Shown: one piece after another, positions 6,508-54,015 of the stretch
How positions within the stretch are numbered: position 1 is the stretch's first letter
Layout: each line of letters starts with the position of its first letter
Source of the DNA: Escherichia coli
GTDB lineage: Bacteria > Pseudomonadota > Gammaproteobacteria > Enterobacterales > Enterobacteriaceae
NCBI RefSeq assembly: GCF_003334815.1
Contig: NZ_QOWO01000013.1
Reading direction: 5' to 3' (one strand)
DNA length: 64,000 bases
Translations under genes and position numbers: made by a program
The notes under the pieces: generated by a model
The model's database searches: none
Seen by the model: the letters and a program-made list of their open reading frames with translations, nothing else
What the model was told of the DNA's origin: nothing

Positions 6508-7911
6508 GTGTCACTTTCGCTTTGGCAGCAGTGTCTTGCCCGATTGCAGGATGAGTTACCAGCCACAGAATTCAGTATGTGGATACGCCCATTGCAGGCG
6601 GAACTGAGCGATAACACGCTGGCCCTGTACGCGCCAAACCGTTTTGTCCTCGATTGGGTACGGGACAAGTACCTTAATAATATCAATGGACTGCTAACCA
6701 GTTTCTGCGGAGCGGATGCCCCACAGCTGCGTTTTGAAGTCGGCACCAAACCGGTGACGCAAACGCCACAAGCGGCAGTGACGAGCAACGTCGCGGCCCC
6801 TGCACAGGTGGCGCAAACGCAGCCGCAACGTGCTGCGCCTTCTACGCGCTCAGGTTGGGATAACGTCCCGGCCCCGGCAGAACCGACCTATCGTTCTAAC
6901 GTAAACGTCAAACACACGTTTGATAACTTCGTTGAAGGTAAATCTAACCAACTGGCGCGCGCGGCGGCTCGCCAGGTGGCGGATAACCCTGGCGGTGCCT
7001 ATAACCCGTTGTTCCTTTATGGCGGCACGGGTCTGGGTAAAACTCACCTGCTGCATGCGGTGGGTAACGGCATTATGGCGCGCAAGCCGAATGCCAAAGT
7101 GGTTTATATGCACTCCGAGCGCTTTGTTCAGGACATGGTTAAAGCCCTGCAAAACAACGCGATCGAAGAGTTTAAACGCTACTACCGTTCCGTAGATGCA
7201 CTGCTGATCGACGATATTCAGTTTTTTGCTAATAAAGAACGATCTCAGGAAGAGTTTTTCCACACCTTCAACGCCCTGCTGGAAGGTAATCAACAGATCA
7301 TTCTCACCTCGGATCGCTATCCGAAAGAGATCAACGGCGTTGAGGATCGTTTGAAATCCCGCTTCGGTTGGGGACTGACTGTGGCGATCGAACCGCCAGA
7401 GCTGGAAACCCGTGTGGCGATCCTGATGAAAAAGGCCGACGAAAACGACATTCGTTTGCCGGGCGAAGTGGCGTTCTTTATCGCCAAGCGTCTACGATCT
7501 AACGTACGTGAGCTGGAAGGGGCGCTGAACCGCGTCATTGCCAATGCCAACTTTACCGGACGGGCGATCACCATCGACTTCGTGCGTGAGGCGCTGCGCG
7601 ACTTGCTGGCATTGCAGGAAAAACTGGTCACCATCGACAATATTCAGAAGACGGTGGCGGAGTACTACAAGATCAAAGTCGCGGATCTCCTTTCCAAGCG
7701 TCGATCCCGCTCGGTGGCGCGTCCGCGCCAGATGGCGATGGCGCTGGCGAAAGAGCTGACTAACCACAGTCTGCCGGAGATTGGCGATGCGTTTGGTGGC
7801 CGTGACCACACGACGGTGCTTCATGCCTGCCGTAAGATCGAGCAGTTGCGTGAAGAGAGCCACGATATCAAAGAAGATTTTTCAAATTTAATCAGAACAT
7901 TGTCATCGTAA
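6508..7911 (+). CDS. dnaA: Chromosomal replication initiator protein DnaA
   Basis: GTG start giving [33 protein letters not shown]..., Walker [18 protein letters not shown]-terminal DNA-binding domain; 467 aa. Confidence 0.95.
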
Positions 7912-12553: not shown

Positions 12554-12654
12554 GCCTGATGCGCTACGCTTATCAGGCCTACGAAAATCTTGCAATGTAT
12601 TGAATTTTCATGATTTTGTAGGCCGGATAAGGCGTTCACGCCGCATCCGGCAAG
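12554..12654. repeat. BIME (two inverted REP elements) downstream of gyrB
   Basis: GCCTGATGCGCTACGCTTATCAGGCCTAC followed by GTAGGCCGGATAAGGCGTTCACGCCGCATCCGGCAAG, separated by a short linker. Confidence 0.75.
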
Positions 12655-22713: not shown

Positions 22714-22814
22714 ACATCGTAGCCGATGAGGACGCGCCTGATGGGTGTTCTGGCTACCTGACCTGTCCATTGTGGAAGGTCTTACATTCTCGCTGATTTC
22801 AGGAGCTATTGATT

Positions 22815-23228
22815 ATGCGTAACTTTGATTTATCCCCGCTTTACCGTTCTGCTATTGGATTTGACCGTTTGTTTAACCACTTAGAAAACAACCAGAGCCA
22901 GAGTAATGGCGGCTACCCTCCGTATAACGTTGAACTGGTAGACGAAAACCATTACCGCATTGCTATCGCTGTGGCTGGTTTTGCTGAGAGCGAACTGGAA
23001 ATTACCGCCCAGGATAATCTGCTGGTGGTGAAAGGTGCTCACGCCGACGAACAAAAAGAGCGCACCTATCTGTACCAGGGCATCGCTGAACGCAACTTTG
23101 AACGCAAATTCCAGTTAGCTGAGAACATTCATGTTCGTGGTGCTAACCTGGTAAATGGTTTGCTGTATATCGATCTCGAACGCGTGATTCCGGAAGCGAA
23201 AAAACCGCGCCGTATCGAAATCAACTAA
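22815..23228 (+). CDS. ibpA: Small heat shock protein IbpA
   Basis: [43 protein letters not shown]..., alpha-crystallin domain, 137 aa. Confidence 0.95.
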
Positions 23229-26633: not shown

Positions 26634-29954
<3,321 letters not shown>

Positions 29955-30120: not shown

Positions 30121-31836
30121 ATGAATTCGTTACAAATCTTGAGTTTTGTCGGTTTTACGCTGCTGGTGGCGGTGATCACCTGGTGGAAGGTCCGCAAAAC
30201 AGATACCGGATCGCAACAAGGCTATTTTCTTGCCGGACGTTCACTAAAAGCGCCGGTTATTGCCGCTTCGTTAATGCTAACCAACCTTTCCACGGAACAA
30301 CTGGTCGGCCTTTCCGGGCAGGCCTACAAAAGCGGCATGTCGGTGATGGGCTGGGAAGTGACTTCAGCGGTGACGCTGATCTTCCTCGCGCTAATCTTTT
30401 TACCGCGCTATCTGAAGCGCGGCATTGCCACCATCCCCGATTTTCTGGAGGAACGTTATGATAAAACGACGCGTATTATCATCGACTTCTGCTTCCTAAT
30501 TGCCACCGGCGTCTGCTTTCTGCCGATTGTTCTCTACTCCGGCGCGTTGGCGCTCAACAGCCTGTTTCACGTCGGGGAATCGCTACAGATTTCTCACGGT
30601 GCGGCTATCTGGCTACTGGTAATTTTGCTTGGTCTGGCGGGAATTTTGTATGCGGTGATCGGCGGACTGCGCGCAATGGCAGTGGCGGACTCCATCAACG
30701 GTATTGGGCTGGTTATCGGCGGGTTGATGGTGCCGGTATTTGGCCTGATCGCGATGGGCAAGGGCAGCTTTATGCAGGGCATTGAGCAACTCACCACCGT
30801 TCACGCCGAGAAATTAAACTCAATCGGTGGCCCGACCGATCCCTTGCCGATTGGCGCGGCATTTACCGGTTTGATTCTGGTGAACACCTTTTACTGGTGT
30901 ACAAATCAGGGCATCGTGCAACGCACGCTGGCGTCAAAAAGCCTGGCGGAAGGGCAAAAGGGGGCGCTGTTAACGGCGGTGCTGAAAATGCTCGACCCGC
31001 TGGTACTGGTGCTGCCAGGGTTGATTGCGTTTCATCTGTATCAGGATTTACCGAAAGCCGACATGGCCTACCCGACGCTGGTCAATAACGTTCTGCCAGT
31101 GCCAATGGTGGGTTTCTTCGGCGCGGTGTTATTTGGTGCGGTGATCAGTACCTTCAACGGCTTTCTGAATAGCGCCAGTACGTTATTCAGTATGGGTATT
31201 TACCGTCGCATCATTAACCAGAATGCCGAGCCGCAGCAGCTGGTCACCGTCGGGCGCAAATTTGGTTTCTTTATCGCTATCGTTTCGGTGCTGGTCGCGC
31301 CGTGGATCGCCAACGCGCCGCAGGGGCTGTATAGCTGGATGAAACAGCTCAACGGCATTTACAACGTGCCGCTGGTTACCATCATCATTATGGGCTTTTT
31401 CTTCCCGCGCATCCCGGCGCTGGCGGCAAAAGTAGCGATGGGGATTGGCATAATCAGCTACATCACCATCAACTATCTGGTGAAGTTCGACTTCCATTTC
31501 CTCTATGTGCTGGCCTGTACGTTCTGCATCAACGTGGTCGTGATGCTGGTGATCGGTTTTATCAAACCGCGCGCCACGCCGTTCACCTTCAAAGATGCGT
31601 TTGCGGTGGACATGAAACCGTGGAAAAACGTCAAGATCGCGTCAATTGGCATCCTGTTCGCGATGATTGGCGTCTATGCCGGGCTGGCTGAATTCGGCGG
31701 CTACGGTACGCGCTGGTTAGCGATGATCAGTTATTTCATTGCCGCCGTAGTGATTGTCTACCTGATTTTTGACAGCTGGCGGCATCGTCACGACCCAGCC
31801 GTAACCTTTACTCCCGACGGGAAGGATAGCCTATGA
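30121..31836 (+). CDS. yidK: Sodium:solute symporter family transporter YidK
   Basis: 571-aa polytopic ORF MNSLQILSFVGFTLLVAVITWWKV... Confidence 0.85.
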   Translation: MNSLQILSFVGFTLLVAVITWWKVRKTDTGSQQGYFLAGRSLKAPVIAASLMLTNLSTEQLVGLSGQAYKSGMSVMGWEVTSAVTLIFLALIFLPRYLKRGIATIPDFLEERYDKTTRIIIDFCFLIATGVCFLPIVLYSGALALNSLFHVGESLQISHGAAIWLLVILLGLAGILYAVIGGLRAMAVADSINGIGLVIGGLMVPVFGLIAMGKGSFMQGIEQLTTVHAEKLNSIGGPTDPLPIGAAFTGLILVNTFYWCTNQGIVQRTLASKSLAEGQKGALLTAVLKMLDPLVLVLPGLIAFHLYQDLPKADMAYPTLVNNVLPVPMVGFFGAVLFGAVISTFNGFLNSASTLFSMGIYRRIINQNAEPQQLVTVGRKFGFFIAIVSVLVAPWIANAPQGLYSWMKQLNGIYNVPLVTIIIMGFFFPRIPALAAKVAMGIGIISYITINYLVKFDFHFLYVLACTFCINVVVMLVIGFIKPRATPFTFKDAFAVDMKPWKNVKIASIGILFAMIGVYAGLAEFGGYGTRWLAMISYFIAAVVIVYLIFDSWRHRHDPAVTFTPDGKDSL

Positions 31837-33326
31837 AACGCCCCAATTTTCTGTTCGTCATGACCGATACCCAGGCCACCAATATGGTCGGTTGCTATAG
31901 CGGTAAACCGCTGAATACGCAAAATATTGATAGTCTGGCGGCGGAAGGTATTCGCTTTAATTCCGCCTACACCTGTTCACCGGTTTGTACGCCTGCACGG
32001 GCCGGACTATTTACCGGTATCTACGCTAACCAGTCCGGCCCGTGGACCAACAACGTCGCGCCAGGCAAAAACATCTCCACTATGGGGCGCTACTTTAAGG
32101 ATGCCGGCTATCACACCTGTTACATCGGCAAATGGCATCTCGACGGTCATGACTATTTCGGCACTGGCGAGTGTCCGCCGGAGTGGGACGCTGATTACTG
32201 GTTCGATGGGGCGAACTATCTTAGCGAACTGACGGAAAAAGAGATTAGCCTGTGGCGCAATGGCCTAAACAGCGTCGAAGATTTACAGGCGAACCATATC
32301 GACGAAACCTTCACCTGGGCGCATCGTATCAGCAATCGGGCGGTGGATTTTCTGCAACAGCCTGCGCGCGCAGACGAGCCTTTCCTGATGGTGGTTTCGT
32401 ATGATGAGCCGCATCACCCGTTCACCTGTCCGGTGGAGTATTTAGAGAAATACGCTGATTTTTACTACGAGCTGGGCGAGAAAGCACAGGATGACCTGGC
32501 TAACAAACCGGAACATCACCGCTTATGGGCGCAGGCGATGCCATCGCCAGTCGGTGATGACGGGCTTTATCACCATCCGCTCTATTTTGCCTGTAATGAC
32601 TTTGTTGATGACCAAATCGGACGGGTCATCAATGCCTTAACGCCAGAGCAACGTGAAAATACGTGGGTTATTTATACCTCCGATCACGGCGAAATGATGG
32701 GCGCACATAAGCTGATCAGTAAAGGGGCGGCGATGTATGACGACATCACCCGCATTCCGCTGATCATCCGTTCGCCGCAAGGGGAGCGGCGACAGGTCGA
32801 TACGCCAGTCAGTCATATCGATTTACTGCCGACAATGATGGCGCTGGCAGATATTGAAAAACCAGAGATTCTGCCGGGGGAAAATATCCTTGCCGTGAAA
32901 GAGCCACGCGGCGTGATGGTGGAATTTAACCGCTACGAGATTGAGCATGACAGCTTTGGCGGTTTTATTCCGGTGCGTTGCTGGGTGACGGATGACTTTA
33001 AACTGGTACTCAACCTCTTCACCAGTGATGAACTTTACGATCGCCGTAATGACCCAAATGAAATGCATAACCTGATCGATGATATCCGTTTTGCAGACGT
33101 TCGCAGCAAAATGCATGACGCCTTATTGGATTACATGGACAAAATTCGCGATCCGTTCCGCAGTTACCAATGGAGTCTGCGTCCGTGGCGTAAAGATGCA
33201 CGGCCGCGCTGGATGGGGGCGTTTCGTCCACGTCCACAAGATGGCTATTCGCCAGTTGTACGCGACTATGACACCGGCCTACCGACACAAGGGGTGAAGG
33301 TGGAGGAGAAAAAACAGAAGTTCTGA
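31833..33326 (+). CDS. yidJ: Putative sulfatase YidJ (Cys-type)
   Basis: 497-aa ORF with the sulfatase signature C-T-P-A-R-A-G-L-F-T-G near the N-terminus. Confidence 0.85.
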   Translation: MKRPNFLFVMTDTQATNMVGCYSGKPLNTQNIDSLAAEGIRFNSAYTCSPVCTPARAGLFTGIYANQSGPWTNNVAPGKNISTMGRYFKDAGYHTCYIGKWHLDGHDYFGTGECPPEWDADYWFDGANYLSELTEKEISLWRNGLNSVEDLQANHIDETFTWAHRISNRAVDFLQQPARADEPFLMVVSYDEPHHPFTCPVEYLEKYADFYYELGEKAQDDLANKPEHHRLWAQAMPSPVGDDGLYHHPLYFACNDFVDDQIGRVINALTPEQRENTWVIYTSDHGEMMGAHKLISKGAAMYDDITRIPLIIRSPQGERRQVDTPVSHIDLLPTMMALADIEKPEILPGENILAVKEPRGVMVEFNRYEIEHDSFGGFIPVRCWVTDDFKLVLNLFTSDELYDRRNDPNEMHNLIDDIRFADVRSKMHDALLDYMDKIRDPFRSYQWSLRPWRKDARPRWMGAFRPRPQDGYSPVVRDYDTGLPTQGVKVEEKKQKF

Positions 33327-33372
33327 CGATAATGCCCGCTGATGATCACCCGGCGGGCATTATTCAGGCTGC

Positions 33373-33822
33373 TTAAACCAGTGAACCGCCGGTCAGGAAG
33401 GAAAAGATAAGGAATATCAGCAAAATGCTGCACACGATGCCGATACCAAAAAGCAAGGTATGGAAAGCCAGCGTCCCGCCGCCAAAAACCAGCGCGCCGC
33501 GAATGCCCCAGCGATTTTCCTTACGCATACCGCCAATAAATGCGCAAAGTAGCGCAGCAATGGCCAGTGCGATACCGCTTTGATTGAGGATTTTATCGAC
33601 ATCTACGTCCTCTTTTTTCTCCACGGTGGTAATTTTTTCGCCTTTTATTCCGGCGAGAAGACCTCTTTTAATTTCAGCCGTTTTGTCCGCCACGATGCTT
33701 TCAAACGTTGGCGGTGGTGCGGAGAAAGGGCCGAATGAAAAGTGGATAATCCCCATCATTAAAGCGATGGCACCGAACAGCATGCCCAATGAACTGATTT
33801 TATTTTGAGCTATGATACCCAT
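33373..33822 (-). CDS. yidI: Inner membrane protein YidI
   Basis: Hydrophobic ORF MGIIAQNKISSLGMLFGAIALMMGIIHF...; 149 aa. Confidence 0.75.
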   Translation of the reverse strand: MGIIAQNKISSLGMLFGAIALMMGIIHFSFGPFSAPPPTFESIVADKTAEIKRGLLAGIKGEKITTVEKKEDVDVDKILNQSGIALAIAALLCAFIGGMRKENRWGIRGALVFGGGTLAFHTLLFGIGIVCSILLIFLIFSFLTGGSLV

Positions 33823-33929
33823 CTGACCTCCTTGTAGCGGATGGCAAAAGCATATCAGGAAACGGGCGGACGAAATTCTTAAAAAAACCGCTAAAGGTAG
33901 AGCGTTAGTGAAATTGCAAAGGAGCAACA

Positions 33930-34277
33930 ATGAAAATTTCCCGCCTCGGAGAAGCGCCTGATTACCGCTTCTCGCTGGCTAATGAGCGTACTTTTCTGGC
34001 GTGGATCCGTACTGCACTAGGATTTCTGGCGGCGGGGGTTGGGCTTGATCAACTTGCGCCAGATTTCGCCACGCCCGTCATTCGCGAACTGCTGGCGTTG
34101 TTGTTGTGTCTGTTTTCCGGCGGGTTAGCGATGTATGGCTACTTGCGCTGGTTACGCAATGAAAAAGCGATGCGTCTGAAAGAGGACCTGCCCTACACCA
34201 ACAGCTTATTAATCATTAGCTTAATATTGATGGTCGTGGCGGTGATCGTTATGGGACTGGTGTTGTATGCCGGATAG
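33930..34277 (+). CDS. yidH: Inner membrane protein YidH (DUF202)
   Basis: 115-aa membrane ORF MKISRLGEAPDYRFSLANERTFLAWIRT... Confidence 0.8.
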   Translation: MKISRLGEAPDYRFSLANERTFLAWIRTALGFLAAGVGLDQLAPDFATPVIRELLALLLCLFSGGLAMYGYLRWLRNEKAMRLKEDLPYTNSLLIISLILMVVAVIVMGLVLYAG

Positions 34278-34629
34278 CCGCAAAGCCAGACGCATTGCCG
34301 ACCCAGGACTGCAGCCGGAGCGCACATCACTGGCGTGGTTTCGTACCATGCTGGGCTACGGCGCGTTGATGGCGTTGGCTATCAAACACAACTGGCACCA
34401 GGCGGGCATGTTATTCTGGATTTCGATTGGCATTCTCGCCATCGTGGCGCTGATCCTCTGGCACTACACCCGTAATCGCAATTTAATGGATGTCACGAAT
34501 AGCGATTTTTCCCAATTTCACGTAGTCCGTGACAAATTTTTGATCTCCCTCGCGGTGTTATCTCTCGCAATACTGTTTGCTGTAACGCATATACATCAAC
34601 TTATCGTATTTATTGAGAGAGTCGCATGA
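34267..34629 (+). CDS. yidG: Inner membrane protein YidG (DUF202)
   Basis: 120-aa ORF with the ERTSLAWFRT motif, paralogous to yidH; overlaps the yidH 3' end. Confidence 0.8.
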   Translation: MPDSRKARRIADPGLQPERTSLAWFRTMLGYGALMALAIKHNWHQAGMLFWISIGILAIVALILWHYTRNRNLMDVTNSDFSQFHVVRDKFLISLAVLSLAILFAVTHIHQLIVFIERVA

Positions 34630-35123
34630 CAGGAAGTCAGGTCATTGATGCTGAAGAGGACAGGCATAAACTGGTTGTAGAGTACAAGGATGCTCTGCAA
34701 CCTGCCGATTTTTATCACAATTTCAAACAGCGGGGCATCCGCTCCGTACAGCTCATTCCCTATCTTGAATTTGATGACCGGGGCGATCTGACGGCCGCTT
34801 CGGTGACAGCAGAGCTGTGGGGGAAATTTTTAATTGCCCTGTTCGAGTGTTGGGTGCGGGCAGATATCAGTCGTATCTCGATTGAGCTTTTTGACGCCAC
34901 CTTACAAAAATGGTGTGGCAGCGAAAACCCGCAACCGCGCTGTGACTGCCAGGCGTGCGACTGGCATCGCCTGTGCCCGCACGCTCGGCAGGAGACGCCA
35001 GACAGCGTGCTTTGTGCGGGCTATCAGGCGTTTTATTCTTACTCCGCACCGCATATGCGGGTGATGCGTGATCTGATAAAGCAGCATCGTTCTCCCATGG
35101 AGCTGATGACGATGCTGCGGTGA
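34626..35123 (+). CDS. yidF: YidF, SPASM-like Cys-rich protein resembling the C-terminal part of an anaerobic sulfatase-maturating enzyme
   Basis: 165-aa ORF with a cysteine cluster WCGSENPQPRCDCQACDWHRLCPHA...LCAGY and no radical-SAM CxxxCxxC N-terminal core. Confidence 0.75.
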   Translation: MTGSQVIDAEEDRHKLVVEYKDALQPADFYHNFKQRGIRSVQLIPYLEFDDRGDLTAASVTAELWGKFLIALFECWVRADISRISIELFDATLQKWCGSENPQPRCDCQACDWHRLCPHARQETPDSVLCAGYQAFYSYSAPHMRVMRDLIKQHRSPMELMTMLR

Positions 35124-35130
35124 CGTGCGC

Positions 35131-36315
35131 TTAAACGGGCTGCCCCTGATGCGACATCCGCGTCGCCAGCGGCAGCCAGCACAGCACGATCAACAATCCC
35201 ATTAAGGTCATCAACAACCCCAGGCTGCCCTGACCGGTTTGCGGCAACATCGCAGAGAGCGACGCCAGCACGCCGGAACCAATGTTTTGCAGACCGCCGA
35301 CCAGCGCGCCAGCCGTGCCCGCCAGGAAGGGGAACGGCTCCATCGCGCCGCTGGTCGCCAGCGGAAACAGCATCCCGGCACCGAAAAAGAACAGCGCGGC
35401 GGGAACGAGCAGCGTCCAGACATTCATCACGCCAAACCAGTCGGGGATCCACATCAGCAAGCCAGCCAGCAGGCAGCAGATAACCGACTGCCACATTAAC
35501 GTGGAGAAGCGTTTATTGGGACGTCCGGCAAACCATGCGCCAAAAAACGCTGCCGGAATCGGCAGAATAAACAAAATACTGACCGTCATACTGCTCAGCC
35601 CTAACACCGCGCCCATCAGCACGCCGGAGCAGGCTTCAAAGGCGGCAATCCCGGCCAGACCGCCAATCAGCATCAGCAAATAACAGTTAAAACCGCTGTT
35701 ACCGAAAAGCGTTTTATAACTGGTAAGCAGGCGCGTGCGCGGTGCATCGACCGGACGCGTTTCCGGCATCCAGCGGGCCATACTGAAGGTCACACCAGCA
35801 CAAAGAACCAACAAAAAGAGATAACAGGCGCGCCAGTTCCACATCGTATCCAGCAGACCGCCGATTAGCGGTGCGAGCAACGGACTGACGAGAATCCCCA
35901 TGTTTAACAGGCTGTTAGCATGGCGCAACTGTGTCCGTTCATATAAATCTCGCGGTAAAGTACGCGCCATTACGCCGCCAACGCCGGTGCCCATCCCCTG
36001 CATCGCGCTGGCGGCAATCAACACCGTCAAACTGGAGGTCGTGACCGCGACCAGCGTTGCCAGCATAAAAATGGACATTCCGACGAGGATCACCGGTCGG
36101 CGGCCCACGCGGTCGGAAATCGGGCCATAAAACAGCTGTGAGACACCGTAAGTCAGCAGATAAGCGCCCATTACGCTCTGCACCGCCCCTTCACGGACGT
36201 TGAGATCGCGCGCCATATCGGCAATAGCTGGAATATAAATGGCTTGCGCCATCTGACCGACGGCCACGAGTAATACCAACATCAATAACAAATTGACGTT
36301 TCTTTGCCTTTTCAT
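35131..36315 (-). CDS. emrD: Multidrug efflux MFS transporter EmrD
   Basis: ORF MKRQRNVNLLLMLVLLVAVGQMAQAIYIPAIADMARDLNVREGAVQSVMGAYLLTYG...; 394 aa. Confidence 0.9.
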   Translation of the reverse strand: MKRQRNVNLLLMLVLLVAVGQMAQAIYIPAIADMARDLNVREGAVQSVMGAYLLTYGVSQLFYGPISDRVGRRPVILVGMSIFMLATLVAVTTSSLTVLIAASAMQGMGTGVGGVMARTLPRDLYERTQLRHANSLLNMGILVSPLLAPLIGGLLDTMWNWRACYLFLLVLCAGVTFSMARWMPETRPVDAPRTRLLTSYKTLFGNSGFNCYLLMLIGGLAGIAAFEACSGVLMGAVLGLSSMTVSILFILPIPAAFFGAWFAGRPNKRFSTLMWQSVICCLLAGLLMWIPDWFGVMNVWTLLVPAALFFFGAGMLFPLATSGAMEPFPFLAGTAGALVGGLQNIGSGVLASLSAMLPQTGQGSLGLLMTLMGLLIVLCWLPLATRMSHQGQPV

Positions 36316-36489
36316 TATCACGGATGCTTTTATAAAAATAATTAGAATAAGTCACTACGCATTCCCATAAATGCGGGAGAGGAATCTATCACATTGATGA
36401 ATGTTAGCCAGATATACGCCAGGAATGGGGAATTGTTTAGCGGCAGAATATGTAAACAAAAGCGGCAATAAATGTTGCCGGGAGAGATG

Positions 36490-36974: not shown

Positions 36975-37119
36975 ACTATGCACTAAATACGTCAAAATTC
37001 GTGCCGAAATTGCGCGTTCTGCGCGGAACACGTATACTTTCAGTGTTGACATAATACAGTGTGCTTTGCGGTTACCAGCCGCAGGCGACTGACGAAACCT
37101 CGCTCCGGCGGGGTTTTTT
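36975..37119 (+). ncRNA. istR: istR locus (IstR-2 with nested IstR-1 antitoxin sRNA); boundaries approximate
   Basis: Divergent from tisAB; contains the 21-nt block complementary to the tisAB leader at 37045..37065 and ends at a GC-rich segment followed by TTTTTT (about 37101..37119). Confidence 0.5.
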
Positions 37120-53920: not shown

Positions 53921-54015
53921 TGGCGGAAGATCACAGGAGTCGAACCTGCCCGGGACCGCTGGCGGCCCCAACTGGATTTGAAGTCCAGCCGCCTCACCGG
54001 AGACGACGATCTTCC
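53921..54015 (-). tRNA. selC: tRNA-Sec (selenocysteine tRNA, anticodon UCA)
   Basis: Reverse complement of 53921..54015 is GGAAGATCGTCGTCTCCGGTGAGGCGGCTGGACTTCAAATCCAGTTGGGGCCGCCAGCGGTCCCGGGCAGGTTCGACTCCTGTGATCTTCCGCCA, 95 nt with the long acceptor and extra arm typical of tRNA-Sec and a 3' CCA. Confidence 0.95.

Follow-up and report, generated by a model that had tools for sequence, protein, structure and literature searches.

Escherichia coli yidF descends from a sulfatase maturase through internal in-frame deletions and is maintained by purifying selection

The yidF gene of Escherichia coli encodes a 165-residue protein and lies downstream of yidJ, the gene of a Cys-type sulfatase. We studied it in a 64,000-nucleotide stretch of contig NZ_QOWO01000013.1 (assembly GCF_003334815.1; hereafter the window), where it occupies positions 34626..35123 of the + strand. 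The gene and its family were already known; the corrected description is that YidF originates from an anaerobic sulfatase-maturating enzyme (anSME), a radical S-adenosylmethionine (SAM) enzyme, by internal deletions, and that what is left, a half-barrel, a four-cysteine loop and a C-terminal helix, is maintained by purifying selection. We consider it probable that yidF is a maturase descendant, shrunken in frame and kept as a constrained pseudoenzyme tied to yidH and yidG, while YidJ is matured in trans. A full-length anSME once closed an operon of the order yidK-yidJ-yidH-yidG-yidF, and two internal deletions took its radical SAM [4Fe-4S]/SAM-binding core together with the auxiliary-cluster-I half of its SPASM region. 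Without that core YidF would be unable to convert Cys52 of YidJ to formylglycine. The role for which it was retained would have to do not with the maturation of sulfatases but with the DUF202 pair YidH and YidG, whose genes are coupled to yidF in translation.

Descent from the maturases is supported by sequence, fold and synteny. YidF matches the NCBIfam model TIGR03942 (anaerobic sulfatase maturase) with an E value of 5.4e-21 and 75.1 bits, below the cutoff of 349.45, in two stretches, the better of which covers model positions 160-245 of 363. In an alignment with the crystal-structure sequence of Clostridium anSMEcpe, YidF residues 27-95 correspond to residues 175-246 and residues 105-152 to residues 314-370; the equivalent of 247-313 is deleted and that of C330 is lost. 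Comparison with the full-length YidF of Citrobacter werkmanii by BLASTP gives an E value of 7e-42. An AlphaFold2 (AF2) model built from a 64-sequence alignment is compact, with a mean predicted local distance difference test score (pLDDT) of 82 and a predicted template modelling score (pTM) of 0.80; its half-barrel and terminal helices are confident and its cysteine loop is uncertain. The only significant matches of this model to the PDB, found with Foldseek, are the anSMEcpe entries 4K36-4K39 (4K37: E value 7e-6, TM score 0.63). Finally, in a scan of one genome per species, in which the conserved YidF tail peptide served as probe, members of the family were found after yidG in the 63 loci recovered.

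Both YidF deletions are internal and in frame. The start codon, situated inside the ATGA overlap with yidG, and the first six codons are those of the full-length orthologues, which start with MTGCHVMAKPASSRCNLRCRYCFY; they leave a relic of the maturase N-terminus, MTGSQV (34626..34643; ancestral MTGC[HQ]V; this and the following features of yidF are all on the + strand). Directly after these six codons about 150 codons are gone, CNLxCRYC among them, and YidF resumes at the equivalent of position ~158. What follows is the second half of the radical SAM partial barrel (residues 16-95; 34671..34910), recognized by alignment, modelled with pLDDT 87-97, and evolving with a ratio of nonsynonymous to synonymous substitution rates (dN/dS) of 0.16. 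The second deletion, at residues 96-104, took about 60 codons out of the auxiliary-cluster-I/beta-hairpin part of SPASM. YidF resumes at the CxxCx5C...C loop (residues 108-130; 34947..35015), placed by residue-level alignment to anSMEcpe, and ends with the C-terminal helices (residues 131-165; 35016..35120), which carry AGYQAF..SAPHMRVMRDLIKQHRSPMELM..L, are near-invariant across genera and are modelled with pLDDT 83-93. No CxxxCxxC motif occurs in the 165 residues or in any frame of the window, and no Pfam model matches YidF, Radical_SAM and SPASM included. A search of the whole window by tblastn with AslB and two full-length YidF proteins returned nothing with E <0.1 outside yidF, and the same search confined to 33300-34700, with a word size of 2, likewise revealed no N-terminal remnant. 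The missing parts of YidF were therefore deleted, not displaced.

A sequence-only reading of the window had described YidF as a truncated, SPASM-only protein devoid of the CxxxCxxC core. The absence of the core is borne out, and no intact radical SAM domain exists in an alternative frame of the window. "SPASM-only" does not hold: barrel makes up half of what remains, and of SPASM the protein retains just the distal half. The refuting condition that had been set, a lack of similarity to the SPASM domain of anSMEs, has a mixed outcome: neither PF13186 nor the NCBIfam SPASM model TIGR04085 matches, yet similarity to the C-terminal half of the anSMEs is significant. "Truncated" has to be replaced as well, for the gene still has its ancestral start and first six codons and still overlaps yidG by ATGA, and the maturase remnant that was to be looked for upstream of yidF does not exist. 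The RefSeq/PGAP label of YidF in all genomes inspected is "radical SAM protein", a carry-over by homology. Our results correct this annotation, for YidF cannot be a radical SAM protein, and the loss of the radical SAM core makes formylglycine formation by YidF itself implausible, as far as can be judged from sequence.

The cysteine loop suggests what the protein may still do. In 64 sequences, AslB included, C108, C111 and C130 never vary, and C117 is present in at least 90%. These residues align with C317, C320, C326 and C348 of anSMEcpe, which we take to be the ligands of auxiliary cluster II, those of auxiliary cluster I presumably being C255, C261, C276 and C330. Several short lineages have lost the C330 equivalent and the PKHR motif, both strictly conserved in the intact enzymes. 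The C. freundii group has a tyrosine at the C326 equivalent and keeps the next cysteine; four cysteines always remain. YidF is thus probably a small cytoplasmic protein with a putative site for one Fe-S cluster, and our best guess is that this single-cluster protein works with YidH and YidG. The K-12 protein has a further cysteine, Cys106 (34941-34943), as well as Tyr46 (34761-34763). Four other E. coli alleles have Arg106 and His46, and the other sampled Escherichia lineages have His46 in all cases and Arg106 or Gln106 in all but one, so that the extra cysteine in the "RCDC" of K-12 is strain-specific.

The full-length ancestor can still be found in place. A full-length YidF (367-374 aa, with CNLxCRYC) follows yidG in 25 of the 63 loci, with the same ATGA overlap. 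Its carriers are Atlantibacter, Kluyvera, Trabulsiella, Pseudocitrobacter, Yokenella, Kosakonia, one Leclercia strain, Enterobacteriaceae isolates, a soil metagenome-assembled genome, C. werkmanii, C. braakii, C. sedlakii, C. amalonaticus and one C. youngae strain. The three of these proteins that were scored reach 469-484 bits against TIGR03942, above the cutoff of 349. A metagenome-assembled relative (99% match to Atlantibacter) shows the order yidL-yidK-yidJ-yidH-yidG, followed by a full-size gene starting with MTGCHVMAKPASSRCNLRCRYCFY, which two N bases split in the assembly only. Short homologues of about 165-178 aa occur in Escherichia, Citrobacter, Klebsiella, Leclercia, Silvania and Superficieibacter; they are 42-53% identical to E. 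coli YidF, share a nearly invariant C-terminus, SAPHMRVMRDLIKQHRSPMELMAMLR, and usually begin with MTGCQ. Between the two sizes lies a graded series. The intact enzymes are followed by near-full-size proteins (310-363 aa) with a broken motif (RIT691, P0240, P0351 and P0245), by a Kosakonia enzyme that is otherwise intact and has lost the hairpin in frame (23 residues), and by a 192-aa form of C. amalonaticus which keeps CxxxCxxC and lacks the middle of the protein. Forms of 213, 220 and 249 aa come next, and then those of 162-178 aa. The end point is reached in Salmonella enterica and Enterobacter kobei, which keep yidH-yidG and have no yidF at all.

Shrinkage took place more than once. Neighbour-joining trees were drawn from YidH+YidG and from the columns that the YidF proteins share. 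In them, short forms of Leclercia and Silvania stand beside a full-length Leclercia gene, the Superficieibacter forms beside full-length Pseudocitrobacter, the 220-aa form beside Kluyvera and the 192-aa form beside C. sedlakii, the Klebsiella and Raoultella forms being separate again. These trees are weakly resolved, and in them the short forms of Escherichia, Salmonella and the C. freundii complex may represent one event or a long-branch grouping. yidF has shrunk independently in at least six enterobacterial lineages, nearly always in frame. Of the 63 loci, 60 have a frame that is open from the ancestral start codon to the ancestral stop codon. Among the other three, E. albertii NBRC 107761 has an 11-bp deletion and L. 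adecarboxylata NCTC13032 has several 1-bp indels; the third is an Enterobacter assembly rich in errors. Two copies, that of L. adecarboxylata NCTC13032 (L068 7977-8486), which also has an internal stop, and a 164-aa protein labelled E. coli at NCBI (P0088), leave the YidF frame in mid-gene and return to it before the tail; such changes could be sequencing errors or compensated frameshifts.

Selection on the short protein was estimated from coding sequences. The six sampled Escherichia lineages have exactly 165 codons each, so that their divergence post-dates the deletions; their dN/dS averages 0.167 and their dS 0.56. In three independent pairs within the genus dN/dS is 0.12, 0.24 and 0.16; the bootstrap intervals all lie within 0.07-0.38, and the Fisher p values range from 1e-9 to 6e-18. 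dS reaches 0.8 in the yidF comparisons. Short forms from five clades have dN/dS of 0.13-0.31 against 0.08-0.13 for full-length clades, and in the columns that were retained (half-barrel, cysteine loop and tail) the values are about equal, 0.06-0.31 in short clades and 0.08-0.20 in intact enzymes. The tail is the most conserved part of the family, with a dN/dS of about 0.06 at a dS of 0.46 in Escherichia. Of 5426 complete E. coli genomes, 5421 contain yidF with an identity of at least 95%. Among the divergent alleles, the four that were sampled are intact; the match that diverges most is a frameshifted pseudogene. In strain T309.Ta3 the gene is frameshifted by a 4-nt insertion near codon 23. 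Among five alleles the ratio of nonsynonymous to synonymous polymorphism is 0.21 for yidF, 0.03 for yidH and 0 for yidG; the dN/dS of yidH is 0.02-0.07.

These figures bear on the simplest alternative, namely that yidF is a neutrally decaying pseudogene without function, its conservation reflecting only a recent origin. This would agree with the lack of any catalytic feature, with the complete loss of the gene in S. enterica and E. kobei, with the frameshifted alleles that turn up occasionally, and with the rate at which the protein evolves, 4-8 times that of its neighbours (identity across Escherichia is 82-83% for YidF versus 91-99% for YidK, YidJ, YidH, YidG and EmrD). However, the 165-codon architecture is common to all sampled Escherichia despite dS of up to 0.8, with dN/dS significantly below 1; the tail is constrained in spite of many synonymous changes; the retained columns are as constrained as in the intact enzymes; and the frame was kept in all but three loci, although neutral deletions fall out of frame two thirds of the time. 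We regard this alternative as largely refuted already, and grant it little credence. The sequence-only reading, which saw in yidF a possible remnant, was right about its descent and about the absence of radical SAM chemistry; decay is the part that has to be given up.

A reading frame can also be kept for reasons that lie in cis, the YidF protein being irrelevant: coupling to yidG, stability of the mRNA or signals for emrD. The yidG ATGA overlap is conserved in nearly all loci, and in E. coli the emrD stop is only 8 nt past that of yidF. Such constraints would preserve the frame or the nucleotides, but not the amino acids, yet dN/dS is well below 1 across the whole open reading frame, and synonymous sites are freer in yidF than in its neighbours (dS 0.56 versus about 0.41). 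In addition, the tail peptide is conserved although the gene downstream changes from genus to genus (dsdA, emrD and others). Since the tail combines a low dN/dS with abundant synonymous change, its constraint is on the protein and not on DNA signals for emrD. No Rfam RNA overlaps yidF, and a promoter and terminator scan was uninformative. An explanation in cis appears to us very improbable.

If the protein matters, the question becomes that of its partners. yidH, yidG and yidF are contiguous in all 63 loci. They are accompanied by yidJ/yidK in 24 of 62, namely in 15 of the 25 with a full-length yidF versus 9 of the 37 with a short or intermediate one (Fisher p 0.008, the species not being independent). 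A yidHGF group without the sulfatase is found in species of the C. freundii complex, K. pneumoniae, Raoultella, Silvania and S. diarizonae, and Kosakonia has an intact maturase and no yidJ. YidH and YidG belong to the DUF202/YidH family: PF02656 is found on their orthologues and, as a precomputed assignment, on all 120 YidH homologues listed. These best 120 matches are all close enterobacterial orthologues, offering no distant genomic context. The same domain is listed for the eukaryotic Vtc subunits (PMC7283521), and the literature searched yielded no function for DUF202 in bacteria. Thus the pairing of yidF with yidJ that had been proposed gives way to another association: yidF is coupled to yidH and yidG and travels with them, with or without yidJ.

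This distribution has to be set against the possibility that short YidF still assists the maturation of YidJ without catalysing it, either by presenting CTPAR to AslB or YdeM in the manner of an adaptor or chaperone, or as part of the E. coli formylglycine-forming system that is yet to be identified. YidF does descend from a dedicated YidJ maturase of the same locus and keeps part of the substrate-facing barrel and a cluster site of the electron-transfer type; moreover, a third E. coli system awaits identification (PMC8379841), and the literature searched names only aslB and ydeM as deletion-tested. Nevertheless, yidJ/yidK are missing from the locus in 28 of the 37 species with a short or intermediate yidF, the regions of the catalytic base and of auxiliary cluster I are deleted, and no anSME fragment devoid of catalysis is known to serve as an adaptor. 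We hold such a role to be unlikely, although less so than neutral decay. A more radical proposal, to which we attach only the slightest weight, is that YidF, alone or with YidH/YidG, is a stand-alone auxiliary-cluster Fe-S module exapted from the maturase and, at the extreme, part of the formylglycine-forming activity of E. coli lacking aslB and ydeM.

Several observations weigh against a constrained pseudoenzyme tied to yidHG. A model of YidH, YidG and YidF fused by Gly-Ser linkers, computed with AF2 from a genome-paired alignment, supports no complex (pLDDT 61, pTM 0.40), a weak test with 26 alignment rows and no predicted aligned error, and the confidence of the YidF tail fell in it. The loss of yidF from S. 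enterica and E. kobei, with retention of yidH-yidG, means that YidH and YidG do not need YidF. The cysteine loop, which would hold the cluster, is the fastest-evolving and least confidently modelled part of the protein. Pseudogenes occur sporadically, in E. albertii NBRC 107761, L. adecarboxylata NCTC13032 and E. coli T309.Ta3. The tail-peptide probe misses old out-of-frame relics, which biases the count of in-frame loci and leaves the dN/dS values within Escherichia unaffected. Lastly, the closest anSMEs outside the locus (about 51% identity) adjoin sulfatases and have no DUF202 neighbours, which speaks against DUF202 proteins as general partners of anSMEs and makes the link specific to this locus. 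Two of these relatives (L074 3435-6143; L076 3915-6654) form simple sulfatase+anSME pairs, the former lying, in an Enterobacteriaceae genome, between the regions of mog and dnaK.

The sulfatase itself appears to be in use. YidJ (31833..33326, + strand) matches Pfam PF00884 (Sulfatase) with an E value of 1.3e-72 over residues 4-341, the full length of the model, and also SGSH_C. It carries the (C/S)-x-(P/A)-x-R signature as CTPAR at residues 52-56 (31986..32000, + strand), as had been read from the sequence, and this motif is identical in 24 of 26 orthologues. The predicted formylglycine site is Cys52. The N-terminus of YidJ, MKRPNFLFVMTDTQ, is already the first strand of the sulfatase fold and there is no signal peptide; the protein is therefore cytoplasmic. 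In Escherichia yidJ has a dN/dS of 0.046, that is, strong purifying selection, and this together with the conserved CTPAR shows, at the level of coding constraint, that the sulfatase is not cryptic, contrary to one of the two options that had been offered for the cluster.

As to the other option, maturation in trans by AslB or YdeM, both enzymes are intact in K-12, which has these two intact anSMEs, each encoded beside a Ser-type periplasmic sulfatase: AslB (518 bits against TIGR03942, motif CNLNCDYC) next to AslA (SSPTR), and YdeM (505 bits, CNLKCDYC) next to YdeN (SGPSR). AslA and YdeN, which are the other sulfatases of K-12, are of the Ser type and have signal peptides. The anSMEs act on both Cys and Ser substrates. 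In a 2021 paper aslB and ydeM are the two putative anSMEs of E. coli, and a third formylglycine-forming system is suspected and unidentified (PMC8379841). Since YidF lacks the catalytic core while YidJ stays strongly constrained, we infer that YidJ is matured in trans, the one route left to it, by AslB or YdeM under anaerobiosis or by this third activity. YidJ, alone among the sulfatases of E. coli K-12 in being of the Cys type and cytoplasmic, has lost its dedicated maturase and is nonetheless under strong selection, which sharpens the question of how E. coli makes formylglycine.

The identities and coordinates assigned from yidJ to yidF by the sequence-only reading are correct. The window belongs to E. 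coli K-12: the 5-kb stretch around yidF is 100% identical to that of MG1655 and is found in 5421 of 5426 complete E. coli genomes; in about 300 of these 5421 less than 80% of the 5-kb query is covered, so that the locus is structurally polymorphic within the species. First comes yidK, a sodium:solute symporter gene (30121..31836, + strand; NCBIfam NF007790, 857 bits; junction sequence and annotation), whose stop overlaps the yidJ start in an ATGA. After yidJ come yidI (33373..33822, - strand; from annotation), which encodes a small membrane protein, then yidH (33930..34277, + strand; PF02656 on homologues) and yidG (34267..34629, + strand; PF02656 on orthologues), which encode DUF202 membrane proteins and overlap by 11 nt. 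The yidG/yidF overlap is 4 nt, and emrD (35131-36321, - strand; from annotation) is convergent with yidF. The K-12 locus is thus made up of two translationally coupled units, yidKJ and yidHGF, with the opposite-strand yidI between them. Of the three genes lying between yidJ and yidF, yidH and yidG are ancestral members of the operon, and yidI is a later, lineage-restricted, opposite-strand addition. yidI is full-length (alignments of about 116-151 aa) in Escherichia, S. arizonae and three Citrobacter loci, a 28-aa fragment is left in S. diarizonae, and the remaining loci have none. E. coli T309.Ta3 (L078 1-2002) is devoid of yidI as well, and its yidJ-yidH gap is 60 nt, as in Atlantibacter.

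Other features of the neighbourhood may be mentioned. Upstream of yidL (about 26634-29064 of the window), a phosphotransferase system (PTS) gene with an internal stop and the frameshifted gene next to it are RefSeq pseudogenes in K-12; relatives without yidLKJ have intact PTS EIICB and glycoside hydrolase family 4 genes directly upstream of yidH. No known RNA overlaps the yid genes in an Rfam scan of the window, in which the matches above gathering thresholds are istR next to tisB (36990-37119), the dnaA antisense AsdA (7018-7098), a ROSE_2 thermoregulator (22749-22821), tRNA-Sec (53925-54015) and the ES036 sRNA (12575-12617). In Citrobacter, E. kobei, C. koseri and another member of the Enterobacteriaceae (L004 8544-12389; L070 4708-6027; L071 5823-8426; L073 6094-7410), D-serine-type genes resembling dsdA, dsdX and dsdC (PALP, GntP permease and LysR, from Pfam only) directly follow yidF, or yidG in loci that have no yidF; the Citrobacter locus alone has all three, the others having PALP, plus GntP in C. 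koseri. A published table reports that overexpression of YidF raises D-serine resistance in E. coli (PMC12363166). Apart from this entry, the literature search on yidF found no paper treating the gene, one match being a typographical error for YdiF. The neighbourhood and the table entry could be a coincidence or a functional lead.

Beyond E. coli, the yidF loci offer a natural series that leads from a radical SAM enzyme to a small conserved pseudoenzyme by repeated in-frame internal deletions, and this series should be useful for studying what an isolated auxiliary-cluster module is capable of. YidF may be compared with four known systems. The formylglycine-generating enzyme (FGE) is the usual aerobic partner of CxPxR sulfatases such as YidJ (PMC2459300). 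Nothing FGE-like is encoded in the yid locus, and YidF is unrelated to FGE. With the anSMEs (AslB, YdeM, Klebsiella AtsB and anSMEcpe) YidF is homologous, and by synteny it is orthologous to full-length members. It shares with them the second half of the barrel, the CxxCx5C...C cysteines and a C-terminal helix of the pattern LCAGYQ..F...P.....M.DL, also present in AslB. It has neither the CxxxCxxC cluster nor the barrel half that binds SAM, and the part of SPASM belonging to auxiliary cluster I is missing as well. In the Twitch radical SAM enzymes, such as BtrN, the two-cluster SPASM module is reduced to a single auxiliary cluster. These enzymes keep the radical SAM core and the equivalent of auxiliary cluster I, whereas in YidF the core is gone and it is the auxiliary-cluster-II side that remains. 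Finally, like other pseudoenzymes, YidF has lost its catalytic motifs and persists as a fragment of a fold under purifying selection, the series extending from motif-dead proteins of full size (P0240, L023) to the 165-aa form. Most described pseudoenzymes keep their whole fold, whereas yidF shrank by repeated in-frame internal deletions.

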